Assembly: GCA_029881435.1 (NCBI GenBank)
Contig: JAOUMR010000005.1
Location: 7,116-71,115, forward strand
DNA: 64,000 nucleotides
Direction: 5' to 3'
Origin: Nitrospira sp.
Lineage (GTDB): Bacteria > Nitrospirota > Nitrospiria > Nitrospirales > Nitrospiraceae
Within the stretch, counting starts at the first letter, position 1; every line of letters begins with the position of its first letter. Below the pieces are notes generated by a model that made no database searches, was not told the DNA's origin, and was given only the letters and a program-made list of their open reading frames with translations. Below are positions 779-19,037 of the stretch, piece by piece. Both the position numbers and the translations under genes were made by a program.

Positions 779-2191
779 TCACTTTGCTAGACTTCTGATA
801 TAGTGAATCAGCTGCCACACCTGGTCATCCGGCAACCCGGGAAACGCCATCATGCCGGTCCCCGGCGACCCATTCTTGATGATCCAGAACAGTTGCCCAT
901 CCGGCAGATCTCGCATCATGACGCCACAGGTAAAATTCCGGGGTGGAGGCACAAAGGCCGTCCCCATCAACCCCTTCCCATCTCCCAGCTCGCCGTGACA
1001 CATGACGCAGGCGACGGGCTGCACAGCCTTTAGAAACAACTCTTTTCCCGCCTTGATCGCTCCAGCAGACGAGGGAAGCGGATTCGTTGTGGTGAGAAAG
1101 TTTTCTGGAGCCGTGGCGGTCTTGCGCGGCTGCACACAGGCAGCTCCTTGCGCACCTCCTGCCGCCGCGGGTGCTAAGTCTGGTACTCCTTTGAAGGTTA
1201 CCTTCAAATAGGCGATGACATCTGCCACGCCTTGCTGGCCAATGGTCACTCCCCAGTAGGGCATGTTCGGCGATTTTCCGATCGCGACGCCGCCGTGATT
1301 GATCACAGTATAGAGATAGTCTACCGGAAGTTTGTCGAACGGCATGTTGGCGTGGATAGCCGGTTTTGGCTCTAGCCCGGAGGCGGCAGGACCATCACCT
1401 TTGCCGGTAAAGCCATGACACTGGGCACAATATTCCTTATAGAGCGTCTTGCCGCGCCCTGCGTCGGCCTTGCTGAACTCAGAACTCGTCCACGGCTCAT
1501 AATATTGAAAGTCCGACACCCCTTGGACCATCAGATAGCCGATTACGGCCCGCAGTTGCGGCTCCGTTGCATCAGCCAGGAATTCACCGCTGTGCGGTAC
1601 GAAGTCCTGCGGGTTGAGACCAAAGCGAAACAGCCAGTCCTTGTCGTATCGCTGGCCAGACTTCTGCAACGCCGCGCTCTGTGGCCCCCCGATCAGTTTG
1701 CCATTCTCTTCGATCGTGTGGCAGCCGAGGCAGGCATGGGCTTTATAGGCCATCCCGCCGAACGTCACGTCGAACTTCGTCACCTTGGAGAGATCGAATG
1801 CGCCGGCCGTCACACGCGGATCTTTGTTGTGTTCGGCAAAATAATCGGCGAGGGCATTCGCCTCGGACTCCGTCACCATCGGATGTTTCGCTGGAACGTC
1901 CGTCAAGTCCCACCGATACCCCTTGGCATAGAGCGGAGCTTCTTTTCCAGTGAGCCAACGAATGAGCCACGACCGTTGGTATTTGCTGCCGGCCCATATC
2001 AAATCAGGAGCATGTAGATTGAACCGAGAATCGGCTGTCCCTTCTAACCGGTGACATTGTGTACAGGTCTGTTCAATGAGCTCCTTAGCGCGAGATTGGT
2101 CGCTTGCAAAGGACAGGTCCTGAAACGACAGCAGGCCCACAAGCAATGTCACCGCCGCTCCAGCGACTCGTTTCTCCCTCCTCACATTCAT
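779..2191 (-). CDS. tetrahaem c-type cytochrome, secreted
   Basis: 470 aa with a hydrophobic N-terminal signal-like segment. Four CxxCH haem motifs are present (CTQCH, CLGCH, CAQCH, CVMCH). The C-terminal class I cytochrome c helix reads ...QVWQLIHYIRSL. Confidence 0.85.
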   Translation of the reverse strand: MNVRREKRVAGAAVTLLVGLLSFQDLSFASDQSRAKELIEQTCTQCHRLEGTADSRFNLHAPDLIWAGSKYQRSWLIRWLTGKEAPLYAKGYRWDLTDVPAKHPMVTESEANALADYFAEHNKDPRVTAGAFDLSKVTKFDVTFGGMAYKAHACLGCHTIEENGKLIGGPQSAALQKSGQRYDKDWLFRFGLNPQDFVPHSGEFLADATEPQLRAVIGYLMVQGVSDFQYYEPWTSSEFSKADAGRGKTLYKEYCAQCHGFTGKGDGPAASGLEPKPAIHANMPFDKLPVDYLYTVINHGGVAIGKSPNMPYWGVTIGQQGVADVIAYLKVTFKGVPDLAPAAAGGAQGAACVQPRKTATAPENFLTTTNPLPSSAGAIKAGKELFLKAVQPVACVMCHGELGDGKGLMGTAFVPPPRNFTCGVMMRDLPDGQLFWIIKNGSPGTGMMAFPGLPDDQVWQLIHYIRSLAK

Positions 2192-2257
2192 CCTCCCCCC
2201 TTACTTTTTCTAAACGAGGCCCTTGCCTGAATTCATTGTATAATTGCGTGTTAGCAC

Positions 2258-2677
2258 TCACGAATCATTGTCCTTGCGAGGTGGCTGCGGATTCAACGTG
2301 ATGGCGATATTCGGCGTTACAGCAATAGCTTGGTGAACAGTGCAGCCATGCGCCACCTTCAAGAGTCGCTCTCTTTGTTCTGCCGTGATTCGACGAGGTA
2401 AATGGATTCCGATGTCGATGCGACCAACGCGATGGGGGCGCTCGGCCATGGTCCATTCCGCATCGACGCTCAAGCCCTCCCGAGAAATACCGTGCCGCCC
2501 GCAAAATTGTCCGACGAAGTACGCGACACAACTTGCGACGGACCCGACAAAGAGTTCCACCGGGCTCATGCCGGCATCTTGCCCTCCGTCCTCTGCCGGC
2601 TGGTCGGTGATGACTCGATGCTGACCACTCACAATGTCGTAGCGTGTCCCGCCGTGAAAAGTGGCCGTGAGTTTCAT
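2258..2677 (-). CDS. OsmC-family protein
   Basis: 139 aa with an OsmC/Ohr-like pattern by eye (...GMSPVELFVGSVASCVAYF...LLKVAHGCTVHQAI...). Confidence 0.8.
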   Translation of the reverse strand: MKLTATFHGGTRYDIVSGQHRVITDQPAEDGGQDAGMSPVELFVGSVASCVAYFVGQFCGRHGISREGLSVDAEWTMAERPHRVGRIDIGIHLPRRITAEQRERLLKVAHGCTVHQAIAVTPNIAITLNPQPPRKDNDS

Positions 2678-2695
2678 CTCGCGCCTGTGGGCTGC

Positions 2696-3550
2696 TCAGT
2701 ACGGCACATCTGCAGGCTTGCCCCCCTTCGGCCAATCGTGGATCTTGTCCGGAAAATCGGGCCGTGGCTGTGTATTCATATAGGCCGCGACATCAAATGC
2801 CTCATCGTCCGAAACGGTCCACCCCCAACCTCTTGGCATATTGGCTTTGATAAACGACGCCGCCACGCTGACCCTGGCCATGCCCGCTCCGATATTGTAT
2901 GACCGTGGCCCCCACAGCGGTGGTCCCGCCATCGTCCCCTGTCCATCGGACCCATGGCAGAACAGACATTTCTGTTCAAACACCTTCCTGCCGTTGAGAG
3001 GATCAGGCTGACGTGTCGACGTGAGGCGTGGGATTCCTCGCCACGGCACGGCACTACCAGCCGGCATACTCTGTGACAACCATTCAATGTAGGCGACGAT
3101 GGCCGTCAGCTTGACACTATCCGACGGGAGAGACTTGCCATTCATGCTGCGTTCGAAACACTCGTTAATCCGATCCGCGAGGGTCATCTGTCGGCCGGCA
3201 CGCTCACGATATTGCGGGTAGACGACACTGATGCCGACAAACGGAGCCGCATTCGGGTTGACGCCGGCATCCAAATGACAATTAGTGCAGTTGAGCGCAT
3301 TACCGACGTACCGTTTCCCGTATTCTTGCGTATCGACCACCATCTTGTAACCCAGCCGGATTTGCTCTCCCCTGAGGTCGCCGGGAATAGTTTCAGGAGA
3401 AGGGGGGGCAAACAACGTGTTGACCGTTGACTCAGTATTGGAACGACCGACCGAATCCTCGCTCCCTGTCACCCGTGGAGGCGGGACACAACCGATCGTG
3501 ATCAACGCGACACCTGCCAGCACGAAGTTTGCCACCGACCGTGCACCCAT
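2696..3550 (-). CDS. dihaem cytochrome c, TsdA/SoxA-like (putative thiosulfate dehydrogenase family)
   Basis: Two CxxCH motifs (CTNCH, CLFCH). A conserved-looking RINECFERSMNG block lies about 40 residues after haem 1, the position where TsdA/SoxA proteins carry the Cys axial ligand. The likely start is ATG at 3550 (MGARSVANFVLAGVALITIGC, a signal or lipoprotein-like sequence) rather than 3622. Confidence 0.7.
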   Translation of the reverse strand: MGARSVANFVLAGVALITIGCVPPPRVTGSEDSVGRSNTESTVNTLFAPPSPETIPGDLRGEQIRLGYKMVVDTQEYGKRYVGNALNCTNCHLDAGVNPNAAPFVGISVVYPQYRERAGRQMTLADRINECFERSMNGKSLPSDSVKLTAIVAYIEWLSQSMPAGSAVPWRGIPRLTSTRQPDPLNGRKVFEQKCLFCHGSDGQGTMAGPPLWGPRSYNIGAGMARVSVAASFIKANMPRGWGWTVSDDEAFDVAAYMNTQPRPDFPDKIHDWPKGGKPADVPY

Positions 3551-3558
3551 TTCAGACC

Positions 3559-3777
3559 TCACTTCTTCAGGTTCGATGGAGGAGAACAGGTATTGATGCC
3601 GAACAATGTAAACAACGGGCAAAACCCCACCGCCCCGGTGAGTAGTAATATGGCTCCCACTGCCAAGAGCGCCCCGGCAATGGCCGATGACAACCCAGCA
3701 AAGAGACCGATGCTGATCGCCAAAATTCCTGCACCGATGCGTATCGGTCGCTCCGCTCCTCCGACATTACACGTCAT
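3559..3777 (-). CDS. DUF2892 (YgaP C-terminal-like) small membrane protein
   Basis: MTCNVGGAERPIRIGAGILAI...LLTGAVGFCPLFTLFGINTC matches the DUF2892 pattern (2 TM helices, GxCP motif). GGGAGG lies 7 nt upstream of the ATG at 3777. Confidence 0.7.
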   Translation of the reverse strand: MTCNVGGAERPIRIGAGILAISIGLFAGLSSAIAGALLAVGAILLLTGAVGFCPLFTLFGINTCSPPSNLKK

Positions 3778-3865
3778 GATAATCCCTCCCTTGTTCACGA
3801 AGAAAATGGTTCCCGTCTATCCGACACGCTGGTATGAGACACGTCCCGCCAATTGGATTCATCTG

Positions 3866-4255
3866 CTACGGCTGCTGGCTGGACTCAAAACCCAACGTGC
3901 GGACATAGGCTAAGACATCCCAGATTTCTTCATCGGAGAGCGAATGTTTCCACGCACCCATGGCGGTATTTGGTTTGCCTTCATGAATGCGCCGGAACAA
4001 TGTGCCGTCGAGTCGATTGTGAACATCGGGCGAGGTGAGGTCTGCCGGAGGTGGAACGAGTTTGATTCCGAGCGCACCTTTGCCGTCGATGCCATGACAA
4101 CGGATGCAGGTGTTTACGTAGATTTCCCGCCCACTGACTGGATCTCCTCCCTTTGCTGAGCTGGTGAGTTCTTTCACTCCAAGATTGCTGAAACCCAGCG
4201 CTGACATACCAGTCAACAGTGCGCAAAAAGCCAGCATCCGTCCAGTGATAGGCAT
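3866..4255 (-). CDS. monohaem class I cytochrome c, secreted
   Basis: A single CIRCH motif and a C-terminal ...HEGKPNTAMGAWKHSLSDEEIWDVLAYVRTL. The likely start is ATG 4255 (MPITGRMLAFCALLTG, signal peptide) with GAGGTG upstream. Confidence 0.8.
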   Translation of the reverse strand: MPITGRMLAFCALLTGMSALGFSNLGVKELTSSAKGGDPVSGREIYVNTCIRCHGIDGKGALGIKLVPPPADLTSPDVHNRLDGTLFRRIHEGKPNTAMGAWKHSLSDEEIWDVLAYVRTLGFESSQQP

Positions 4256-4681
4256 CTTTTTCACCTCTCTACACTGATATACACTGAACCTTGCGATCAG
4301 CATGCCATTCCCCCAGTAACAGATCAGCACTATTCCCATTGCTGAACAAAGACTTATGACGTTGCTTTAGAATGGATCGGAGAAGCGGATCTTGGACTGG
4401 TGAAGAACGCCACAGAACCCTATCACCCTCTGGCGCAGGACGCTACACAGCTCCACATCCGAGTGCTAGAGCCTCGGCAAGCGTAACTACTAAAACGCCG
4501 AGTGAACTCGTTACCCCCTGCCACGTAGTGCGCCCATCGAGGAAGTCGACTCGACTCCGCTCGGAAAGTGACAATTTCTTTCAACTTTTTCCGAAACCCA
4601 CTACCCTATTCTTTCGGTAAACAGATCGCTCGTAGGAGCTATTTCTCCTTGGCATAGTTTCGGATTTGGCGCCTTATTGAG

Positions 4682-7600
4682 ATGTCGCAACCACCCTCCC
4701 CGGTTATACACAATCTTGCATCACTCTTTCAGTGGCGTTGCCGGAGAAATCCAAATGACCTGGCCTACGCATTCGTCCGTGACAACCTTGTAGTTGAAAG
4801 CCAAGTAACATTTGGCCAGCTTGAACGCAGGGTCTATTCGCTTGCCATCCATCTTGCCCGCGAGGCCCCGTCAGGAACAAGAGCCCTTCTTCTCTACCCA
4901 CAGGGGCTGGATGTCGTCTATGCATTTTGGGCATGCGCCTGTGCCGGTCTCGTTCCGGTTCCTACTCCGACTCCTGATCTCGTCAGGCAGAAACACAGCC
5001 TGCCGAGACTCCGTTCCATCATTGACGATGCCCAGGCATTGCTTGCGCTCACGACCTCAGACATCAAGGCCCAGGCATCAGAGCTGTCGATCGCAAAGGA
5101 GATTAGTCAGATCAAGTGGGTGGCGACAGATCATCCCTACGAGCAGGCCCACTCGGATGAGCTACCACGGTCTACGAACACCGCCCTTGCCTATCTGCAG
5201 TATACGTCCGGGTCGACGGCCACTCCTCGTGGTGTCATGATCAGCCATGGAAACGTAATCTCCCACTGTAGGGCTTTGAGTCTGGTGGGAGAAGTGTCGG
5301 ACAGCAGCCGATCGCTTTGCTGGTTGCCCTATTTCCATGACTATGGGTTACTGCACGGAATCATCGCCCCGTTCTATACCGGTAATCCCGCCTATCTGAT
5401 GTCGCCCGTCACGTTCCTCCGGCGGCCATTACGTTGGCTCGAAGCGGTGGCTCGGTTTGGGATCACCCACAGCGGGGGACCGAATTTTTCCTATGAAGCT
5501 TGCCTCAGAGCTGTGCGGCAACAGGAGGGATGGCAGGCCGACTTGAGCAAGTGGGTGGTCGCCAGTTGCGGAGCCGAACCCATTCATCCCGATACAGTTG
5601 AGCGGTTTATCGACACTTTTGGCCCATATGGCTTCCGGCGAACGACCTTTGCCCCGGGATATGGACTTGCAGAGGCCACGCTATCGGTGACGGTGAAGCG
5701 GGCCGGAACGGAGCCGAGCTTCCTGCATGTTGATGCCGACGCGTTGGCCGACTCGATCGTCAAGGAGTCGCCCCGGTCAGAACGAGGAACGCGAACACTC
5801 GTTGGATGCGGGGTACCCCTCGAAGAGACTCATGTCCGAATTGTGAACCCGACTACTCGACGCGAGTGCCCACCATGCGTAGTCGGAGAGGTGTGGCTGG
5901 CCGGTTCCGGAATCGCCGCCGGATATTGGGAGAAACCAGAAGAAAGCGAAGCCGTCTTTAAGGCCACCCTCGCTGGATCAAACGAGGGTCCCTACTTGCG
6001 GACCGGCGACCTGGGATTCATCCATCGAGGAGAGCTGTTCCTCACCGGACGCCTCAAGGACCTGATCATCGTGCGCGGACGGAACTATTACCCCCATGAT
6101 CTGGAGTGGACGGCCCAGCAAGCGCATTTCGGCTTGCGACGAGGATCTGGAGCGGCCTTCTCGATTGAGGGCAAGACGGGAGAACTGGTGGTGCTGGTTC
6201 ATGAGATCGACAGGCAGGTGTCCGAATCCGACCTGCCGGACGTGATGAACTGCATCCGTCGTGCGTTGGCCGACGAATATGGACTCGAACTCCACAGTAT
6301 GGTGCTGATCAAGTCCGGGACGATCCCAAGAACCTCCAGTGGGAAAATTCAGCGAAGTGCCTGCCGAGCCGCCCTTGAGTCCAGCCAACTCGCCGTCGTC
6401 GCAGCAAGCACATTGGATCTGGCTGACGCTGAACCCGATGAGTTACGAAGTGAGCCCCCGCAAACTACCATCGAGAAGAAGCTGGCCGATATCTGGCAAG
6501 AGGTGCTTGCAGGACCTGCTCCGCATCGCCATGCGAACTTCTTTGCACTCGGAGGGAACTCCCTTCTCGCAGCACAGGTTGTTGCGCGTATCCTCGATGC
6601 CTTCCATGTCGAGTTCCCGCTCAGTGTGCTGTTCGAATTTCCGACATTGTCCACACTGGCCGCCCGCATCGGTGAACCGAACACGAGTCCGGCTGACGCG
6701 GACCAGCCCGAGGACAGGAGTGGGTACGCAAGTGGCGACGGCAGGACGCGGATTCCGGTTGTTCCGCTTCCCTCGGCATTCACAAGGGAAGGCAGGATTC
6801 CGCTCAGCCCCTCGCAGCAGCGACTGCGGTTCTTGGAGCAGGTTCATCCTGGGAGTGCGATCAACCATATTTCCATGGCTGTGCGTATCCGAGGGTCGGT
6901 CAACCCCGATGTGTTGGAGCGCTCGGTTCAGGAAATCATCCGTCGACACGAGATTCTCCGAACCCGTTTTGGATCGGAGAAGGGTGAAGGCTTCGCAGCA
7001 ATATCCCCTGAAGGTTGCTTCACGCTGGCCGAGCATGATTTCAAAACGCTGAGTCGGACCGAACAAGAAATCGAGGTGCGACAGTTCCTTCGAACGGAAG
7101 CCAGTCGGCCATTTGATCTCGGCCAAGGGCCATTGTTTAGAGTTGCGCTACTGGCACTCGATCAAGATCTGCATGTCTTGGGGCTGACGTTCCATCGCCT
7201 CGTCGCGGATGGTTGGTCCCTTCGCCTCTTCTGTAAAGAATTGGCCCTCCTGATGGAGGCCGGTGGGAATGCTCAAGAGGCTCGTCTTTCCACACCGTAC
7301 ATTCAGTATACGAACTACGTGAACTGGCATCGGACCAGGCTTGATCGAGGCCTTCGTGAGGTCGACCGCGAGTACTGGATCAAGCAGTTGCGCGATGTGC
7401 CGCCGCCTGCTGAATTACCTGCCGACCGTCCACGGCCAAGGGTGCGTGCCTTCGAGGGGGCCGCCCATTCTCGGTCTCTTTCTCCTAGTCTAACTAACTT
7501 GCTGAGCCTCTTTTGTCGGCAGCAGAGCGTGACTCGATTCATGGTGTTGTATGCCGTGTTTGTCACATGGCTGCAACGCTACACGCACGAGTCGGATGTC

Positions 7601-10600
7601 GTGACTGGATCGATCGTGTCCGCCCGGCGTCGGAAAGAGCTCGAAGACGTGATGGGGTATTGCGTCAATACGGTGGCGTTGAGGTCCGAACTTTCGGATG
7701 GGCTGACCGTACACGAGCTGTTGGAGCAGATCCGCCGTGTGGTGGTGGAGGCCTATGACCATCAGGACCTCCCATTTGAAGAAGTGATCGAGGCGTTGTC
7801 GCTACAACGAGGGCATCAGCTGTTTCCACTGTTTAATGTGATGATCGTGGGCGAAGACGACCCCCTGTCCACGTTCAGCGTCAGTGATCTTGAAGTTACC
7901 CATCTCCCCTGGGAACCAACCGCGTCCGAGTTCGACCTCGTGTTGATGGTGGTCAACAAGGTGCAGGGGTTGGAATTGGCGGTTCTTTACGATCGCATGC
8001 TTTTTGACGAGTCGACGATCATTCTCATGTTGGGACAGATCGAAATGCTTCTTGAGCAATTCATCGAGAAACCCGATTCCCCTCTTGACACACTCTCGCT
8101 CCTGACGGCTCAGGAACGCGAGCATCTTCTGACGAAATGGAATCGGCCAAGCCTCCCGGTTCCACATCCTTGTGGTATCCATCAACTCATTGAGGCACAA
8201 GTTAAGCGCACTCCCCATGCACCCGCTGTCACCTGTGGGGACAAATCCATCAGCTATCAAGAGTTGAACGAACGAGCGAATCGGGTCGCACGCGCCCTCA
8301 AGAAGTTAGGGGTTGATGCAGACCACCCAGTAGGTCTTTGTATCGAGCGCTCTGTAGACGCTCTCGTAGGCCTGTTGGGCATTCTCAAAGCTGGGGGAGG
8401 TTATGTCCCTCTGGATCCATCCTTTCCCGCCCATCGCCTCCAACTCATACTCGACGACGCGAATGTCTCCATCGTGGTGACACAGGAGCGGCTGCATAGC
8501 CATCTACAGGGCTACGCAGGCCAGATATGCGACGTGGAGACACTCTGTCATCCACCAACAAGTGGAAATGAGGAAAACCTCGCAATTTCCACTTCTCCTG
8601 ATCAGCTAGCCTATATCATCTACACATCAGGCTCAATCGGACGTCCCAAAGGCGTGGCAGTGACACACCGAAATGTGGTGACCTCGCTTCAGGCCAGACT
8701 TCACTATTATTCGGAATCCGTGGACCAGTTCTTGCTGACCTTCTCTCTGGCCTTCGATGGGTCCGTCACGGGTATTTTTTGGACATTATCGCAGGGAGGA
8801 GAATTAGTCATCCCATCGGAGATCGCTCATCGCGATCCCACCGAACTTGCTTCGCTCATCGCACTGCACCACATCTCGCACGTCGTGTGGGTGCCTTCTT
8901 TGTACCATGCCGTGCTTGGCGAGGCGTTGGGCACTCAGCTGGATTCACTTCGCATCGTCATTACGGCCGGAGAGAGCCTGCCTCTTGAACTCGTGCGACG
9001 GCACTACCAGCTCTTGCCTCATACCACGCTGTACAACGAATATGGACCGGCGGAAACCACGGGCTGGTGCAGCGTGTATCAAACAACTCGCGAGGAAGCC
9101 GGGGCCCGAGTCCCGATCGGCAAACCCATCAACCATATGCAGCTCTATGTGCTGGATGCGAAGCTTCAGCCGATGCCCATAGGCGTTCCCGGTGAGCTGT
9201 ATGTCTCAGGGGACTGCTTGGCCCGTGGCTATGTCAACCAACCGCAGTTGACCCAAAAGCGGTTTCTTGCGAACCCCCACGTGGTCGGTACCAGACTGTA
9301 TCGAACCGGTGACCTGGCTCGGTATCGTGCCGACGGCAATGTGGAGTTTCTTGGGTGGATGGACCAGCAGATCAAACTGCGTGGCTATCGGATCGAACCG
9401 GGAGAAATCGAATCTGTGTTGAGTAACTTCCCGGGTGTGCATCACACGGCGGTGCTGCTTCGGCAGGATAAGGGAGACCAGCACCGGTTGGTCGGCTATA
9501 TCGTCGGCGAGTCGTCGCTCAAAGGAAGGCTTGAACAGGTCCGCCGTTATCTCGCAACTCGATTACCGCATTATATGGTGCCCTCCGTCATTTTGTGCCT
9601 CGATAGCATGCCGCTTAATGCCACCGGAAAGGTGAATTGCAGCGCCCTTCCCGCTCCGGACGACACCACCACTCGGGCGGTGTCCAGGGTTGCTCCCAGA
9701 AATCAGGTTGAAGAATCCCTGGCTGAGTTGTGGAAATCCGTGCTTCAAGTCCCGGAGGTGGGCATCCACGACAACTTCTTTGAGCAGGGAGGCCACTCGC
9801 TCTTGGCGACTCAGCTCGTCTCTCGAATACGTGAGCTATTTGAGGTTGATATCTCACTTCCGGCGCTGTTTGCGCGACCGACGATTGCGGCATTGGCAGA
9901 AGAAGTGACGCGATTGCGCCAGGAGGAGAAGGCATCCATGATGCCGTCGATCGTTCCGGTCCCCAGAGATCAGCCACTCCCCCTTTCCTATTCTCAGCAA
10001 CGCATGTGGTTGATGCATCAGCTGGCTCCTCAGAGCACGGCGTATAACATGCCGTTTGCGTCGAGACAGATGGGACGACTCAACAAAGTGGCTCTCCGGA
10101 ATACGATCGATGCCATCTGTCGCCGCCATGAGGCATTTCGGACGACGTTCATGATGAGTGGTGACGGACCGGTCCAAATGATCCACCCATTTCGCCCTCC
10201 TCATTGGGTCGAAACGGATCTTCAGCAATTGCCACGCGAACAGCGACGGCAGCAGGCGGCTCGGCTTGTAGAGCAGGAAGCGAACCAGCCGTTTGATCTC
10301 GAGCAAGGTCCTCTCGCACGATTCCTCTTGATCGAGATCGAGCCCGAAGATCACGTGTTGGTGCTCACGATGCACCATATAATTGGTGACCAGTGGTCGT
10401 TCGGGATCATTGGCCGCGAGTTCGCGTTCTTCTACAACGCGTTTAGCCGCGGAGAGATTCCTTCGCCAAAGCCGATCCCCATTCAGTATGCCGACTACGC
10501 GGTGTGGCAGCGGCGCTGTCTGACCGATGACTGGCTCAGCATACAATCGGATTATTGGCAGAAGAAGCTGGCCGGACTTTCCAAGCTTTCGTTGCCGACC

Positions 10601-13600
10601 GATCACCCACGGCCTGCGTTGCAGACATTTAATGGCTCCCATCGCATGCTGGAGTTGCCCTCGTCGTTGATCGAACGACTGAAGCAGTTCAGTGCAGACC
10701 ACAATGCGACGGTATTCATGACCCTGCTAGCCTGTTTCCAGATACTCTTGAGTCGCTATTCCAGCCAGACCGACCTTGCCGTCGGCTCTCCCATCGCCAA
10801 TCGGACTCAATCCGCAGTCGAGGCGATCATCGGCTCGTTTGTCAACACACTCGTCTTGCGTACAGATCTCTCCGGCAATCCAACGTTCGTCGAGTTGATG
10901 GCACGGGTACGTGAAACAGCGCTAGAGGCCTACGCCCATCAAGACTTCCCATTCGACAAGTTGGTCGAAACGATGCACTCCTCCCGCGACAATAGCTCTG
11001 CCCCGCTGGTGCAGGTTCTTTTCAATGTACCGAACGCTCCCATCGGGGAGATCAACGTTCAGGGGTTGAGCTGGGTGCCGTTCGAGGCGGAGACACACGC
11101 CGCACAATTCGACCTAAGTTTAACGATTGAAACCGAAATCTCCCGAAAGGCCTATCTGTCTTTCAATACCGACCTCTTTGAGGCACACACGGCTGAACGG
11201 ATGTTGCAACAGTACAAGACCCTGCTCCAGAGCGCATTGGCTAATCCTCAAAACAAACTGTCCGAGCTTCCGACAGTGACAGCATTCGAGCGCAGACAGA
11301 TGTTACAGGATTGGAACCGCACGCAAAGAGAGTATCCACAGTCTGCATGTTTTCCTCAGCTATTTGAAGCGCAGGTTGATCGGATGCCTGACGCGGTTGC
11401 GTTGTCGATGGGGCAGAAGACCCTTCGGTACAGTCAGCTCAATACCCAGGCTAATCAGCTAGCACGCTATCTCCAAACACAGGGTGCTCGTCCAGGGGCG
11501 GCGGTGGGGATCGGTCTTGAACGATCCGTGGAGATGGTCATTGCATTGTTGGCCGTGCTTAAAACCGGTGCGGCCTACGTGCCACTCGACCCTGATTATC
11601 CACGGGATCGACTTCGGTTCATGTCGGAGAATGCCTCACTCATCGCCGTGCTCACATCCGCCTCGCTGTCCGATCGGTTTGATGCCCAAGTCTGCCGCAC
11701 ACTGTGTCTCGATCAAGAGCAGGAACGGATCGCACAGGAGCCCGACCACAATCTTCCACCTACCGCCACGCCTCAGGATTTGGCGTACATCCTGTATACA
11801 TCGGGGTCGACGGGACAGCCGAAGGGGGTGGAAATTCCGCACAGAGCGCTGGTGAACTTCTTATGGTCGATACGACAAGAACCAGGATGTTCCGCTCAAG
11901 ATGTCATGCTCTCTGTCACAACCTTGTCGTTTGATATCGCCGGGTTAGAACTGTACGTGCCACTGCTGGTCGGGGCTCGCGTCGAAATCGCCACTCGTGC
12001 TGTTGCCATGGATGGACGACAACTGCGAGCTCTCTGTGAAGCCGTTCAGCCGACGATCATGCAAGCGACCCCCGCCACATGGAGAATGTTGGTTGAGGCC
12101 GGGTGGCAGGGCAGTACTAGACTGACGATACTCTGCGGAGGTGAGCCTCTTCCCCCTGATCTTGCGGTGACATTGTTAGATCGGAGTGAAACCCTATGGA
12201 ATATGTATGGCCCGACCGAAACCACGATTTGGTCTACGATCGAGAGAATCGAACGGAATGATCAGGACATCACCATTGGCAGACCCATTGCCAATACTGA
12301 CGTGTACATCCTGGATCAATTTCTCCAGCCAGTTCCGGTCGGTGTTGCCGGTGAACTCTATATCGGAGGCCTTGGATTGGCACGAGGCTATCGGGGGCGA
12401 CCTGAGTTAACCGAAGAGCGGTTCATTCCTCATCCATTTTCTGCAGAGCCTCTCGCGAGACTGTATCGAACAGGAGACTTGGCGCGGTATCGACCGGATG
12501 GACGCATTGTGCATCTCGGACGTTTGGATCACCAAGTCAAGATAAGAGGGTACCGGATTGAATTGGGCGAGATCGAAACCGCCTTGAGCCGCCATCAAGC
12601 CGTCCGTCAGGCAGTGGTCATGGCACGAGAAGATCAACACGGTGTCAAACAGCTAGTGGCCTATGTGGTCTGCCAGGATGGCCCTGCGCCAAACCAACCG
12701 GAGCTTCGCTCGTTTCTGAGGTCAGAAATTCCCGACTATATGGTTCCTTCACTCTTCGTGTTTCTGGATGCCATGCCATTGACGGCCAATAATAAGGTCG
12801 ACCGGAACGCCTTACCGGCTCCTGTCTCCACACTCACGAGCGATGCGGCTTTTGTTGCACCGTCCGATCGCATGGACATACAAATGGCGGTTTTGTGGCA
12901 ACAGGTGTTTGGGGTCGACCAGGTCGGGATTCACGACAACTTTTTCGATCTCGGCGGCCACTCACTCAAAGCAGCTCACCTATTCTATCTCATTGAACAG
13001 GTTTACGGCAGACATCTTCCGCTATCGACATTGTTTCAAGCTCCAACCATTGCCACGCTCACGTCGGTTCTTACACAGGAACAGTGGGCACTCCCTTGGC
13101 AATCCCTGGTGGTAATGCAGCCCAACGGGTCGGGCATCCCGGTGTTTTTGGTGCCAGGAGTAGGTGGCGATGTGTTGTGGTTCGCCAATCTCGCTCGGCT
13201 CCTCGGCCGTGCGAACCCGGTGTACGGCTTACAAGCCCGAGGATTCGATGGAAAAGAGGACCCGTTTCTTTCAGTCCCTGAAATGGCAAAACACTACGTT
13301 ACAGAGATCCGTAGATGCCTTCCACAAGGCCCCTATGTTCTCGTTGGTGCATGTACTGGTGGGCTGGTCGCCTATGAGATGGCACAACAATTAGGCGAAC
13401 AGAACACCGTTGCCATTTTGATCATCTTGAATAGCTGGCATCCGACTTCGTATCACACGCGTCATAGTGATCTCTCCCTCAGATTTGCACTTCCGCTGAG
13501 AATCCTTTCGATGACCACGAGCACCCTTGACGAACTCCACCGTACACCTATGAAAGATTGGTTGCTGATCATGCACCGTAAGTATGAGAAGGTTCGGTCG

Positions 13601-13933
13601 GCTTTCCGAAAACCGACCGATGATGAACTGAGACAGCGTCAACTCAAACGCATTCAACAGGCGATGTTCCGGTCAGCCGCCTCCTACACTCTGCATACCT
13701 ACCCCGGCCGCATTCTTAACATCGTGGCTTCACAGCGGATTGCGGACCACGATACCAGATATGGTTGGGGCAAGCTGGCAGGCGATGGAAGCCTGACCAT
13801 AGAGGTTGCGGTTCGTCGTACAGCAGACCTTCTTGCTTCACCGCATGTGGAGAGCGTATCTAGCCATATTCGGCGCTTTATCGACGACGAGTCTCAGGAT
13901 TCATCTGTCCGACCTGTAAATAGAGCTGCGTGA
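4682..13933 (+). CDS. non-ribosomal peptide synthetase with domain order FAAL-T-C-A-T-C-A-T-TE (3083 aa)
   Basis: Motifs read directly from the translation:
- FAAL/adenylate motifs: [35 protein letters not shown].
- Three carrier-domain serines: GGNSL, GGHSL, GGHSL.
- Two condensation domains: [10 protein letters not shown] and [10 protein letters not shown].
- Two adenylation domains: [29 protein letters not shown] and [29 protein letters not shown].
- A C-terminal alpha/beta-hydrolase TE: [12 protein letters not shown]...LVGACTGG. Confidence 0.95.
   Translation: [3083 protein letters not shown]
4700..6400 (+). other. NRPS domain: fatty acyl-AMP ligase-like loading domain (approximate bounds)
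   Basis: An N-terminal adenylate-forming domain with FadD32/FAAL-like motifs. It is directly followed by a carrier domain and a C domain. Confidence 0.75.
6455..6670 (+). other. NRPS domain: carrier (ACP/T0); Ser codon 6560-6562 in GGNSL
   Basis: LADIWQEVL...[15 protein letters not shown]. Confidence 0.8.
6790..8110 (+). other. NRPS domain: condensation C1 (starter-type position); active-site motif reads H-R-L-V-A-D-G at 7193-7213
   Basis: [13 protein letters not shown]... C1 motif; [10 protein letters not shown] in place of HHxxxDG. Confidence 0.75.
8170..9680 (+). other. NRPS domain: adenylation A1 (substrate not recognised)
   Basis: The A3, A5, A7, A8 and A10 core motifs are all present. 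Confidence 0.8.
9700..9905 (+). other. NRPS domain: thiolation T1; Ser codon 9797-9799
   Basis: [34 protein letters not shown]. Confidence 0.8.
9965..11290 (+). other. NRPS domain: condensation C2 (LCL-like); HHIIGDQ at 10373-10393
   Basis: [24 protein letters not shown] and [10 protein letters not shown]. Confidence 0.8.
11330..12830 (+). other. NRPS domain: adenylation A2 (glycine-like specificity code by hand alignment)
   Basis: [34 protein letters not shown]. The hand-extracted code is D-I-L-Q-L-G-M-I-W-K. Confidence 0.7.
12860..13065 (+). other. NRPS domain: thiolation T2; Ser codon 12962-12964
   Basis: [31 protein letters not shown]. Confidence 0.8.
13105..13900 (+). other. NRPS domain: thioesterase-like alpha/beta hydrolase with GxCxG (Cys codon 13352-13354)
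   Basis: [22 protein letters not shown]...[12 protein letters not shown]...[22 protein letters not shown]...LIILNSW. Confidence 0.75.
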
Positions 13934-13991
13934 TCTTCTCCATATGCCTTGTTCGATCGATTGATACACTCTCGGAATCAAGGATGCAATT

Positions 13992-14756
13992 GTGCTGATT
14001 TCATTCCACTCGATTGAGCGTGCCACCTGTGATGACTGGTTGCATTCCATCGACCTTGAACCAAATACCGTTCATATCTGGGGCATCACGCTCGACGGAT
14101 CCTCATACTGTCTGGCGCGATGTAGGGAGTGGTTGGATGATCTGGAGCGGGAACGTGCCACTCGCTTTATTCGAGAAAGAGACCGCAATCGCTACGTGCT
14201 GGCTCACGGAGGCCTCAGAGCAGTGCTCAGTCAATATCTGGGTATCGGACCTGGTTCGGTACGCTTCGATCGTACCGAATCAGGCAAGCCCCTGTTGGCA
14301 AAGGAATTACGAGATCGATCGACCATCACGTTCAATTTGTCTCATGCCCATGGCCGCGCGCTCGTGGCGGTCTCACGAGCACAAGAAGTCGGAATCGATC
14401 TTGAACGTGTTCGTTCAGATGTCCCGGTTGAGAATCTATCCAGGCGTTTTTTTTCTCAATCAGAACACACGGCGATCATGCAATTAGCTCAAAAGCAGCG
14501 AGCAACCATTTTCTTCCGCTACTGGGTTGCGAAAGAGGCGGTGTTGAAGGCGCAAGGTATCGGTCTCAGGGGATTGACTGGGTGCGAGATTATACTGGGG
14601 ACGGATGGAGTTGGAAAAGACGTTCGAGTCCGGGTCGATTCCCGGCTCCTAGATCCAGTGAGGGTTCGGCTTCTCTCTTGCGACCCAGAGTGGGAAGCAG
14701 CGGTGGCCGCCAAAAATTTGGGCCAAGTGAGGCAGTGCGGCCTAGACCCACAGTAA
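13992..14756 (+). CDS. 4'-phosphopantetheinyl transferase, Sfp type
   Basis: 254 aa with a GTG start. Sfp-type motifs are GKPLL, FNLSHAHGRALVAVS, VGIDLERV and FRYWVAKEAVLKAQG. It lies 58 nt downstream of the NRPS stop on the same strand. Confidence 0.9.
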   Translation: MLISFHSIERATCDDWLHSIDLEPNTVHIWGITLDGSSYCLARCREWLDDLERERATRFIRERDRNRYVLAHGGLRAVLSQYLGIGPGSVRFDRTESGKPLLAKELRDRSTITFNLSHAHGRALVAVSRAQEVGIDLERVRSDVPVENLSRRFFSQSEHTAIMQLAQKQRATIFFRYWVAKEAVLKAQGIGLRGLTGCEIILGTDGVGKDVRVRVDSRLLDPVRVRLLSCDPEWEAAVAAKNLGQVRQCGLDPQ

Positions 14757-16247: not shown

Positions 16248-19037
16248 TCAGCCCCCAAACTTCTTCGGACTCAGAGGGGATATCGGGATCTGAGGGATGG
16301 GTACGTCCTTCGCAGTGCCTCCGCCAAACCGCTTCGTCGTTTCGAAAGTGACGAGACTTAAAATCCCGGCAGCCACACACACCGCCAAATCAATGGGCTC
16401 GAGTGCTGAGAACCGAAATACCCCCCGCAGGAACGGAATAGTCAGCACAAGCGTCAATAACGCCAGGGCGCTCCCGATCACCCACCACAGGGCTTGATTG
16501 GGCACGCGAAACATGTCGGCCATCGAGCGGGACCAAGACCGATTGGTGACAATAAGTCCGAGGCTCGCCAATATCAGTGCCGTGAACGTCAGTGCTCGTG
16601 CATGCTCCGCACCGTCACCACGGTACAGAGACATTGAGAAGATCGTTAGCACGATCAGGAACAGACAGAGCCCTTGCACCAGACCCAGCGTGATGGTGGA
16701 TCGATCAAAGAGCGGGGCATCGGGCACACGTGGCGGTCGGCGCATAACCTCGTTTTCTTCCGCTTCCGCTTCGAAGACGATTGAACAGGCCGGGTCGATA
16801 ATCAACTGCAGGAATAGGATGTGGACCGGCAACAGAATCAACGGCCAGCCCAACATGACCGGTACGAGCGACAAACCGATAATCGGGAAATGCGCCGCGA
16901 TCACGAATGCGATGGCCTTCTTCAGGTTGTCGAAAATCCGTCGACCCAGCTTCACCGCCTCAACGATCGATGAGAAATCGTCATCCAACAACACGACCGC
17001 CGCCGCTTCGCGCGCCACATCGGTCCCGCGCCCCCCCATGGCGATACCGATATGCGCCGCCTTCAGTGCCGGAGCATCGTTGACGCCGTCCCCGGTCATC
17101 GCGACGATTTCACCGCTGGTCTTGAGCGCATTCACGAGACGAAGTTTTTGCTCCGGCACGACCCGACAGAATACGTTGATACGGCCAACCTGACGCTGCA
17201 ACTCCGCATCGCTCATTGTATCAATCTCCGACCCGGAAATGATGCCATCGTCAGACACGAGGCCGATTTGCTGAGCGATCTTCCGCGCTGTCATCGGATG
17301 ATCCCCCGTCATCATCACCACCCGAATACCGGCTTCTTGGCTTTCCTTGATTGCGTCGGGCACGGCGGGTCGGACCGGATCCAGCAGGCCGATAAGCCCA
17401 AGCAGATGGAACTCGAAATCATGCTGGATGTCCGGCAAGGCGGTGCGCGTGAAACTCGCCTGAGCCACACCCAATACGCGCAAGCCTTGCTCCGCCATGA
17501 CATTGATCTGCCGGCTGACCGCTTCGGCTCGTTGCGGATCCAGGTGGCACAACTCTACGATCGCTTCAGGGGCACCCTTGGCGGCAATGACATACCGATC
17601 TCCCTCTGGTGATTGCCACACCCGGGACATCGCCAGCAGCTCCGGCGATAACGGATACTCTTCCACCAGCATCCAGTCCTCGTGCCAATGTTCTGTGCCG
17701 GCAAGAAGCGTCTGTCCCGCCTCACGTATGGCCTTTTCCATCGGGTCAAACGGATCGCGTTGGCTTGCCAGGACACTGAACTCCAGCAGCTCGTGAAACG
17801 TCTCGGGGAGACCCCTGGGGGCAAGCGCAGTGACATCGAACGACTGTCCGTCGACAGATACCACCACCAGCGCCATACGGTTCTGCGTCAGCGTACCGGT
17901 CTTGTCGACACAGAGCACCGTGGTCGATCCAAGCGATTCGACTGCGGGGATGTGACGAATCAATACTCGCTTCTTGGAAATGCGCCACGCACCCAACCCA
18001 AGAAAGATCGTGAGAATGACCGGTAACTCTTCCGGCAAAATGGCCATGGCCAGCGTAATCCCAACGAGCAATCCATTGAGCCAATCAGTGCGGGTCACGC
18101 CATACCAGATGGCCACAAGGGCCGCCAGTGCTAAACCGACCCAGGCGAGTCGTTTCACGGCAACCCCGGTTTCACGCTGAATGCGGGTCGGTTCCTGTTC
18201 CATACGGGTCAACGCGTTGCCGATACGGCCAATTTCGGTGCGCGGTCCGGTTGCCTGAACCGTTGCTGTCCCTGTGCCTTGCACCACCAGCGACCCTGAA
18301 TAGATGAAGGGCAGATCGTCTCCCCCCGGCCGACCCAATTGTGTCTCATGAGCCTGACCGGCCCTCTTTCGCACGGGAACGGATTCCCCCGTCAGCAGCG
18401 ACTCGTCAATGGCCAAGACCGAACAAGAGTTCAGCACCGCATCGGCCGGCACGCGATCCCCCTCGGCGAGCAGGATGAGATCGCCGCGCACGACATCTCG
18501 GCCGGGAATCCGAATTGGTTCACTATCACGGACCACCAACGCGCGCGGGCTAGACAAGTCGCGCAGCGCCTCCAATGCGCGCTCTGTTTTGCGTTCCTGG
18601 AATACCGTGATGCCTATCACGATACAGACAAACCCAAGCAGCATCAGCGCCTCTTGGGCATCCCCGAGGATCAGGTAAATCGCACCGCAAGCCATCAACA
18701 GCATGAACATCGGCTCGCGTGCCACATTGAACGCGATCGCCCACGTGCTGCGCGGCTTAGAGGAAGGCAATTCATTATAGCCGTCAGTCAGAATGCGCGC
18801 TGCCGCATCAGCTGCCGTGACGCCCGCCATCGAGCCTACGATCGGTTGACGATCGATCAATTCCTGCGTCTTCACTCGCACCTCTTGGCCACACCCTTTG
18901 GCAGTGACTGGTCCATCTGGTTGGGAAACATCCTCTTTCGCGCTACACTCAGCATGCCGGTGAAGGACCGTACCTTGATACAGCGCCTTAACTGGAATCC
19001 CCAGAACGACTGTTAGGAAGGCCACGGGGTGAGGCAC
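16248..19037 (-). CDS. cation-transporting P-type (E1-E2) ATPase, P2/Ca-Mg-like
   Basis: TGES, DKTGTLT, KGAPE, MTGDHPMTA and TGDGVNDAPAL motifs, with about 10 TM helices. The start is uncertain, between 18830 and 19037. The Cation_ATPase_N-like segment begins around ...AGVTAADAAARILTDGYNEL. Confidence 0.9.
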   Translation of the reverse strand: MPHPVAFLTVVLGIPVKALYQGTVLHRHAECSAKEDVSQPDGPVTAKGCGQEVRVKTQELIDRQPIVGSMAGVTAADAAARILTDGYNELPSSKPRSTWAIAFNVAREPMFMLLMACGAIYLILGDAQEALMLLGFVCIVIGITVFQERKTERALEALRDLSSPRALVVRDSEPIRIPGRDVVRGDLILLAEGDRVPADAVLNSCSVLAIDESLLTGESVPVRKRAGQAHETQLGRPGGDDLPFIYSGSLVVQGTGTATVQATGPRTEIGRIGNALTRMEQEPTRIQRETGVAVKRLAWVGLALAALVAIWYGVTRTDWLNGLLVGITLAMAILPEELPVILTIFLGLGAWRISKKRVLIRHIPAVESLGSTTVLCVDKTGTLTQNRMALVVVSVDGQSFDVTALAPRGLPETFHELLEFSVLASQRDPFDPMEKAIREAGQTLLAGTEHWHEDWMLVEEYPLSPELLAMSRVWQSPEGDRYVIAAKGAPEAIVELCHLDPQRAEAVSRQINVMAEQGLRVLGVAQASFTRTALPDIQHDFEFHLLGLIGLLDPVRPAVPDAIKESQEAGIRVVMMTGDHPMTARKIAQQIGLVSDDGIISGSEIDTMSDAELQRQVGRINVFCRVVPEQKLRLVNALKTSGEIVAMTGDGVNDAPALKAAHIGIAMGGRGTDVAREAAAVVLLDDDFSSIVEAVKLGRRIFDNLKKAIAFVIAAHFPIIGLSLVPVMLGWPLILLPVHILFLQLIIDPACSIVFEAEAEENEVMRRPPRVPDAPLFDRSTITLGLVQGLCLFLIVLTIFSMSLYRGDGAEHARALTFTALILASLGLIVTNRSWSRSMADMFRVPNQALWWVIGSALALLTLVLTIPFLRGVFRFSALEPIDLAVCVAAGILSLVTFETTKRFGGGTAKDVPIPQIPISPLSPKKFGG

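Follow-up and report, generated by a model that had tools for sequence, protein, structure and literature searches.

A histidine-less cysteine-type thioesterase domain at the end of a Nitrospira nonribosomal peptide synthetase

Thioesterase (TE) domains set the release of nonribosomal peptides and are prime targets for engineering and chemoenzymatic work, and their textbook catalytic triad is Ser or Cys, His and Asp. The question addressed here is how a chain could be released by a TE domain which has Cys at the nucleophile position, Asn at the acid position and Arg where the catalytic His is expected. This domain ends a nonribosomal peptide synthetase (NRPS) encoded in a 64,000-nucleotide stretch of Nitrospira sp. 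DNA (contig JAOUMR010000005.1, assembly GCA_029881435.1, positions 7,116 to 71,115 of the forward strand), the whole of which is referred to below as the window. On sequence comparison the domain belongs to a clade of Cys-type TEs without the catalytic His, for which we found no earlier description, and within it is a derived Asn/Arg form with no exporter gene. The synthetase gene and the parts of its TE domain on which the argument turns are as follows.

4682..13933, + strand: NRPS gene, 3,083 amino acids (open reading frame list, translation, Pfam, NCBIfam FAAL models, specificity codes)
12845..13066, + strand: last carrier domain, T2 (Pfam PP-binding)
13097..13933, + strand: TE domain, residues 2806-3083, alpha/beta-hydrolase fold (Pfam PF00975, AlphaFold2, Foldseek)
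13151..13168, + strand: oxyanion loop V-P-G-V-G-G, residues 2824-2829 (column comparison with canonical TEs)
13346..13363, + strand: nucleophile elbow G-A-C-T-G-G (direct reading, AlphaFold2 model)
13430..13432, + strand: Asn2917 at acid position I, after beta6 (direct reading, AlphaFold2 model)
13436..13444, + strand: W-H-P motif, with His2920 at 13439-13441, the sole candidate for a relocated catalytic His
13718..13720, + strand: Asn3013, in the middle of strand beta7, family-specific (79/80 loci)
13751..13759, + strand: D-T-R motif (Asp3024-Thr-Arg3026) at the end of the post-beta7 loop (locus comparison)
13808..13822, + strand: post-beta8 loop A-V-R-R-T, residues 3043-3047 (MAFFT, HMM alignment to AB3403, DSSP of the model)

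Direct reading showed the open reading frame 4682-13933 to be intact and in frame, as a first-pass annotation of the window had reported, and the 3,083-residue synthetase has the domain order FAAL-ACP-C-A(Tyr-like)-T-C-A(Gly)-T-TE (Pfam, with NCBIfam for FAAL), in which C, A and T stand for condensation, adenylation and carrier domains. Pfam PF00975 matched the last domain with a score of 65.8 bits (cut-off 26.4) over profile positions 2-116 of 226 only, which points to divergence in the C-terminal half. Residues 2806-3083 were modelled with AlphaFold2 from a 92-sequence alignment; the model had a pLDDT of 91.4, a pTM of 0.84 and the strand and helix order of a classical alpha/beta-hydrolase TE. 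The top 50 Foldseek matches in the PDB were all TE domains and the fold is not that of papain; the best matches were type I TEs (Skyxy-type 7crn, AB3403 4zxh, 9f7b, GbnD6, Vlm2, NocB, Pks13, FAS). By profile and by fold the domain belongs to the type I thioesterases of NRPSs and polyketide synthases.

The nucleophile Cys2891, encoded by TGT at 13352-13354, sits in a G-x-S/C-x-G elbow directly after beta5 in the model, and Asn2917 (AAT), 26 residues past the Cys and at the usual position of Asp, closes the strand 'AILIILN' after beta6. Both residues agree with the first-pass annotation, as does its motif V-G-A-C-T-G-G apart from the start coordinate, since the Val lies at 13343-13345, one codon before the start given there. 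Where P-G-x-His would be expected, the loop after beta8 reads I-E-V-A-V-R-R-T-A-D-L-L (13799-13834), and Arg3046 (13817-13819) was aligned to the catalytic-His column both by MAFFT with canonical relatives and by HMM alignment against 'LPGDH' of AB3403. DSSP of the model assigned beta8 to 232-237 and a helix from 242 onward (model numbering), with A-V-R-R-T after beta8 and before this short helix. Cys2891, Asn2917 and A-V-R-R-T occupy, in the model, the three triad positions of a canonical type I TE. The canonical oxyanion loop reads x-H-P-x-G-G, and its His is Pro2825 in the window. No G-x-H motif was found upstream of 'SPHV' on direct reading of the TE, as had been noted before, and a canonical triad elsewhere in the domain was also looked for: no column of the clade alignment held a conserved catalytic-type His. 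The SPHV residue His3055 was considered for this role and rejected; it is 90% conserved, but canonical TEs have it too, and the sequences that lack it carry Y, N, F, S, T or Q. As the states at the triad positions are deterministic features of the sequence, a chance test is not applicable to them.

A scan of species-representative genomes gave 154 loci, essentially all of them from Nitrospira/Nitrospiraceae, and 80 of these were analysed. All 80 orthologous loci encode a synthetase of window-like size (~3,090 amino acids) with an Sfp/HetI-type phosphopantetheinyl transferase (PPTase) downstream. The nucleophile is Cys in 80/80 genome loci (TGT 59, TGC 21) and in 76/76 metagenomic relatives, and the post-beta8 catalytic His is absent from all 80 loci. 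In the 27 loci of the window's type, described below, the acid site is Asn throughout (AAT 15, AAC 12), 'R-T' is present in 25, and the Arg of the His column is encoded by CGT in 12, CGA in 9 and CGC in 4. Each of the codons TGT and AAT is a single substitution from a canonical one (TCT or AGT, and GAT, respectively), and the first-pass annotation had raised an error at TGT; a sequencing or assembly error at either codon is a negligible prospect, given that independent assemblies agree on the Cys (80/80) and the Asn (27/27) and use synonymous codons for both. A first homology search gave the same picture. It returned 153 hits, and in the close family of 78 sequences (query included) all carry G-x-C-T-G-G and none has a post-beta8 His, while the acid column holds Asn in 21, Asp in 43 and Glu in 14. 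Among 42 more distant hits the Ser-nucleophile TEs keep G-x-H (25/25), and about half of the 17 Cys-nucleophile TEs are without it.

When dN/dS was determined for each domain (pooled Nei-Gojobori, close pairs), the TE gave 0.23 and 0.21 in the two subtypes, compared with 0.18 for FAAL, 0.21 for C1 and 0.12-0.14 for A2 (0.11-0.21 overall for the FAAL, C and A domains). Purifying selection acts on the TE, which is neither an error nor in decay; the degenerate domain that had been offered as one interpretation does not agree with this ratio or with a Cys conserved at 100%. The lid and the C-terminal core of the TE evolve fast, with 28% and 45% identity between types; TE lids generally evolve faster. 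D-[T/S]-R is present in 80/80 loci (D-T-R in 79, D-S-R in L011), and canonical relatives carry Leu or Phe at the Asn3013 column. Asp3024, at the end of the post-beta7 loop, is invariant, and canonical relatives with a position-I acid often carry it too.

The loss of His extends beyond Nitrospira. When 1.84 billion representatives were searched exhaustively, 30,112 hits were obtained, the best 150 of which (50%-identity representatives) yielded 120 TE domains. Among these best-scoring domains the His was present in all 38 with a Ser nucleophile, but in only 16 of the 79 with a Cys nucleophile; most of the other 63 carry x-[D/N]-S-G in its place, and these 63 representatives of the His-less clade all keep the Cys. 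The His of the oxyanion motif H-P-x-G-G, found in 92% of Ser/His TEs, is likewise gone, and Pro-Gly is found at this site in 90-95% of the His-less clade. Arg3026 (D-x-R-x-x-W) is present in 95% of the clade, canonical TEs having no preference at this column, and from the alignment it is the sole polar residue gained across the whole clade. The window's domain has Cys2891, A-V-R-R-T, V-P-G-V-G-G and D-T-R-Y-G-W, as the clade does. Named members of the clade are from Accumulibacter/Rhodocyclaceae, Steroidobacteraceae and other Gammaproteobacteria, and carry generic names. An ABC exporter of ~550 amino acids abuts the NRPS stop in 5/5 non-Nitrospira members, followed by the PPTase in 3 of those, compared with 0/3 Ser/His-TE controls, both samples being small; the non-Nitrospira exporters are 43-57% identical to the Nitrospira exporter described below. 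The TIGR01194-type exporters that abut or overlap the NRPS stop were located as follows, in the coordinates of each locus.

L081, 17315-18982: exporter
L083, 12275-13951: exporter
L084, 12170-13798: exporter
L085, 15426-17105: exporter
L086, 4426-6081: exporter
L032, 10902-12563: exporter

Some relatives carry two TE domains in tandem (P0131, P0169, P0185). In these the second TE reads G-L-D-x-G-G, with Asp at the nucleophile position and no His, and judged by these residues the second domains are degenerate, unlike the Cys-retaining clade. Four T-TE fragments of the broader family (P0075, P0085, P0087, P0089) bear the JGI name 'aspartate racemase', which seems to be misassigned, their recorded domains being PP-binding and Thioesterase only. 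In the literature we found no account of a His-less Cys TE, of the Nitrospira cluster or of a coupling between TE and exporter.

The closest solved relative by profile is AB3403 (ABBFA_003403) of Acinetobacter baumannii (PDB 4ZXH/4ZXI), with an E value of 6.6e-85 including the carrier domain. Like the window's enzyme it has a Cys nucleophile (G-W-C-F-G-G) and belongs to a lipopeptide-type pathway, and its terminal module was crystallised with glycine, the amino acid for which the window's last A domain carries the code. AB3403, however, has a complete triad, Cys1137, Asp1164 (V-M-I-D-T) and the His of L-P-G-D-H, together with the oxyanion loop F-H-P-I-G-G. In the window, Asn, Arg and Pro stand in place of the position-I Asp, the catalytic His and the oxyanion His, and Arg3026 has been gained. 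The Cys/Asp/His triad of AB3403 indicates that the Cys predates the loss of His and is ordinary for this lineage. The first-pass annotation had noted the Cys as unusual; the feature that is unusual here is the missing His. Its remark that Cys-type TEs are uncommon is borne out by a published estimate of ~2% of known TEs, and natural Asn or Ser at the acid position of Cys-type TEs has been reported earlier (cited in PMC13288461, the source of both statements), so the change from Asp to Asn alone is not new.

Within Nitrospira the His-less TEs are of two types, which differ in their active sites and in the gene that follows the synthetase.

13992..14756, + strand: Sfp/HetI-type PPTase (Pfam ACPS + AASDHPPT_N; NCBIfam HetI model)

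The window's type has Asn at the acid position, A-x-R-T in the former His loop and an exporter in 0/27 loci, and its PPTase gene follows ~60 nucleotides downstream. In the window the PPTase starts 58 nucleotides past the NRPS stop with no exporter gene between, and this adjacency of NRPS and PPTase is kept in 26/27 loci of the type. A search for an exporter homologue elsewhere in the window gave weak generic ABC-ATPase matches and no TIGR01194-type exporter. The sister type has Asp or Glu at the acid position (53/53), the loop A-x-[D/N]-[S/A]-G, and an ABC exporter between NRPS and PPTase in 52/53 loci; this Nitrospira exporter, of 553 amino acids, matches TIGR01194, 'cyclic peptide export ABC transporter'. 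Both types occupy one chromosomal site, flanked by cytochrome c genes on one side and OsmC/Mla genes on the other. T2 co-varies with the TE type, with identities of 0.85 and 0.81 within the types and 0.70 between them, but A2 does not.

Non-Nitrospira outgroups of equal size have Asp/Glu and D-S-G, and the Asn/Arg-Thr type of the window is therefore the derived one. As the alignments have it, Asn is confined to one subclade while the loss of His defines the clade. The window has none of the marks of the ancestral type (Asp/Glu, x-[D/N]-S-G and a downstream TIGR01194-type exporter), having instead Asn, R-T-A and no exporter, and on this comparison its TE is a derived sub-variant of the His-less Cys-TE clade. 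The ancestral form would have had an acidic Asp or Glu, Asp or Asn at the His position followed by Ser-Gly, and a TIGR01194-type exporter and PPTase downstream; in the derived allele of the window Asp/Glu would have become Asn2917, Asp-Ser would have become Arg3046-Thr3047, and the exporter gene is absent. Changes at the acid and His positions together with the lack of an exporter would imply that the release step, the release nucleophile or the destination of the product was altered.

The two types appear to be exchanged as a unit. In a tree of the TE the Asn-type is monophyletic, but in one built from the remaining 2,700 residues Asn-type loci are interspersed with Asp/Glu-type loci. A pair of loci, L002 (Asn) and L071 (Asp/Glu), showed the boundaries of the exchange. 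Their proteins are 90-97% identical to about residue 2,550, after which identity falls to 75, 64, 45 and 34%, and at the DNA level 93-97% identity to about NRPS residue 2,540 is followed by 44-75% through T2 and the TE. The exporter is present in L071 only, the PPTases share 54-69% identity, and beginning with OsmC the value is back at 83-89%; the mosaic spans nucleotides ~9150-11750 of L002 against ~9150-13850 of L071. From this drop and recovery the A2 C-terminus, T2, TE, exporter (where present) and PPTase form a swappable cassette with two old alleles, and the sequences place the window's allele in a recombining 3' cassette that was exchanged between Nitrospira lineages. Extrapolated from the L002/L071 mosaic, the cassette in the window is approximately the following.

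12300..14756, + strand: A2 C-terminus, T2, TE and PPTase

Is the missing His replaced by another one nearby? His2920, three residues past Asn2917, could act as the general base in a relocated, papain-like triad of Cys2891, His2920 and Asn2917, a kind of arrangement raised in the first-pass annotation, and the loop after beta6 in which it lies was modelled at high confidence. In the SrfTE and FAS-TE structures, residues three to five past the position-I acid line the active-site pocket. The His of 'W-H-P' also arises together with the loss of the catalytic His, and 73/78 and 76/80 sequences of the Nitrospira family carry it. We nevertheless consider this arrangement unlikely. In the 78-sequence set His2920 is replaced by Q, Q, L and P in otherwise intact orthologues, and among the genome loci by Q, P and Q in L017, L019 and L024 and by Y in L038. 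In the wider His-less clade the column holds H in 23, P in 17 and L in 6, so that Pro accounts for about a third and His2920 cannot be a general solution. Moreover, Asn is limited to one subtype, whereas the W-H-P His is commonest in the Asp/Glu subtype.

What the domain would release follows from the specificity codes, which read DGTVIAEGWK for A1 and DILQLGMIWK for A2 in the window. The A1 code, ~DGTVIAEVWK, is common to both TE types, and we take it to be near a Tyr code. DILQLGMIWK is listed for Gly-activating A domains in a published survey (PMC12283262) and was found in 50/50 full-length orthologues of both TE types; going by this code, the last module activates Gly. A C-terminal Gly has neither a beta-hydroxyl nor a beta-amino group, and release as a beta-lactone or beta-lactam is thereby excluded. 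The first-pass annotation had linked the Cys to such strained-ring chemistry, as carried out by ObiF1 (beta-lactone) and SulM (beta-lactam). These enzymes (PDB 6N8E) also have Cys in an alpha/beta-hydrolase TE and a residue other than Asp at position I (Gly1173 in ObiF1), and Arg residues have been implicated in their acyl transfer or substrate stabilisation. Their triads are Cys1146/His1284/Asp1254 in ObiF1 and Cys2818/His2956/Asp2926 in SulM, the Asp having moved to the post-beta7 loop, position II (PMC6668435, PMC11298585). The invariant Asp3024 could match this position-II acid. The catalytic His, however, is present and required in ObiF1 and SulM, whose substrates end in a beta-functionalised residue and which group with type II TEs, whereas the window's TE has no His and so no Cys/His/Asp set with a position-II acid, has a predicted C-terminal Gly in the chain and groups with AB3403-like type I TEs. 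The Gln-Cys-Asn of SulM is also absent (A-C-T in the window), and ObiF1 and RifR are matched, by sequence and by profile, over the N-terminal half of the TE only. A strained-ring TE of this kind is accordingly very improbable here.

From the sequence states, fold, conservation, selection, linkage, mosaic and Gly code, which were all observed, we infer each of the chemical steps given here. The reading we favour, to which we would give slightly better than an even chance on sequence grounds, is that of a functional, non-canonical type I NRPS TE which has kept the Cys nucleophile, has discarded the catalytic and oxyanion His residues and releases its product by His-independent acyl transfer. The invariance of the Cys, the loss of His in Cys-type TEs only, and purifying selection together suggest that the Cys works and that its thiol makes the His dispensable. 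Thiol-thioester exchange, which would be near thermoneutral, would transfer the N-acyl-(Tyr-like)-Gly chain from T2 to Cys2891, and little help from a general base would be needed by a thiol that sits at the N-terminal end of the elbow helix and is served by a backbone oxyanion hole. The glycyl thioester, reactive and unhindered, could then be resolved by a nucleophile without activation by His, most plausibly an amine, or else water or a thiol. The best candidate for electrostatic stabilisation of the thiolate or the oxyanion would be the clade-specific Arg3026. By analogy, the two ancestral carboxylates (at position I and at the former His position) and the Arg resemble the His-free Cys-Glu-Lys acyl-transferases. 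In Lnt, a Cys-Glu-Lys enzyme of the nitrilase superfamily with an unrelated fold, a Cys thioester acyl-enzyme is formed and a carboxylate and a cation replace the His; the ancestral Asp/Glu-type TE has Cys, carboxylate and Arg, whereas the window's allele lacks even the carboxylate. The free-standing alpha/beta-hydrolases SyrC and CmaE shuttle acyl groups between thiols through a Cys, with a His-containing triad.

The favoured reading has to be set against a catalytically dead TE that is kept as a structural or docking module, holding the carrier domain or contacting a partner, while the chain hydrolyses spontaneously or is released by an enzyme encoded elsewhere. Both His residues are gone and in the window the acid as well, Pfam covers the N-terminal half only, and the lid and C-terminal core diverge fast between types. 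Degenerate second TEs do exist in the tandem TE-TE proteins; these, however, have clearly lost the nucleophile, which a dead domain would have no reason to retain, and across the Nitrospira family and the wider clade more than 200 sequences have the Cys without exception, with turnover between its synonymous codons. The dN/dS of ~0.2 and the conservation of Arg3026, Asp3024 and Asn3013 also speak for a working site. No trans-acting release enzyme was conserved in the window or across the 80 related loci, the neighbours being cytochromes c, OsmC and Mla-type transport, and no hydrolase, reductase or terminal C domain was conserved in the cluster in the window and related loci. We therefore regard a dead domain as improbable.

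Mutagenesis of MacB-TE, a Cys-dependent macrocyclase that is, like the window's domain, a Cys-type type I TE of a lipopeptide NRPS, bears on both readings. MacB-TE differs in having a full Cys89/His218/Asp116 triad, and the paper on it (PMC13288461) describes no natural His-less form. Its Cys is indispensable, while H218A and D116A merely lower turnover (PMC13288461), which is consistent in part with the favoured reading. The same study found only trace activity for D116N and impaired activity for H218A (PMC13288461). These effects mean that a His-less, Asn-bearing Cys TE could be very slow, and the near inactivity of D116N is also what a dead domain would predict. Several other observations weigh against the reading that we favour. 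In the window's subtype no domain is conserved as poorly as the TE (61% identity, against 75-85%), and the representatives sampled from the large search are skewed towards sequences related to the query. Within this subtype L005, L019 and P0006 have P-G-L-L or G-G-M-M instead of 'R-T', and L017, L019 and L024 have Q or P instead of His2920; in orthologues without R-T or His2920, either these residues are dispensable or the copies are decaying. The associations of Asn with Arg-Thr and with the loss of the exporter amount to essentially one evolutionary event and carry no statistical weight as co-evolution, and we do not claim that Asn and Arg-Thr co-evolved. The locus L019 is a second copy in the same metagenome-assembled genome as L001 and is also without the His of W-H-P; it may be a decaying paralogue or come from a strain-mixed bin.

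Other features of the synthetase and its surroundings were recorded. The A1 code is DGTV[I/V]AEVWK in most loci and the window has G for V at position 330; three Asn-type loci have DG[I/L]AIGEVWK and two Asp/Glu-type loci DTET[V/I]GTVAK, and from this variation the first amino acid varies within the family. In the first (lipo-initiation) C domain, positions 7193-7213 (residues 838-844) read H-R-L-V-A-D-G and not H-H-x-x-x-D-G, the second, normally catalytic His being Arg in 42/50 full-length orthologues and H-H being kept in 8. The second C domain reads H-H-I-I-G-D-Q at 10373-10393 (residues 1898-1904), with Gln for the Gly of HHxxxDG, and D-Q is kept in 50/50. Three c-type cytochrome genes (window 779-4339, - strand) lie directly upstream of the NRPS, a placement kept in both cluster types. 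A P-type cation ATPase of 929 amino acids (window 16248-19037, - strand) separates the cluster from the Mla-type transport genes; no counterpart was found within 10 kb of the NRPS in the 80 related loci, and it therefore looks like a genome-specific insertion.

To our knowledge, the secondary metabolism of Nitrospira is essentially unstudied. The locus is conserved and syntenic across this genus, which includes the main nitrite oxidisers and the comammox organisms of soils and wastewater plants. The tight linkage of TE, exporter and PPTase suggests that release is coupled to export. As a more tentative proposal, which we hold to be possible but short of probable, the His-independent apparatus of a Cys thioester and Arg, with or without a carboxylate, would be a widespread class of release domain that forms a unit with a dedicated exporter, and the two Nitrospira cassettes would give the same acyl-dipeptide different fates. 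Natural near-isogenic pairs which differ only in the release cassette exist, L002 and L071 being an example. If it is true that Cys TEs work without His, this would be a second mechanistic solution for chain release and would account for the retention of Cys in some TEs, and the active-site rules of annotation and genome-mining tools, by which such domains would be called inactive, would need revision.

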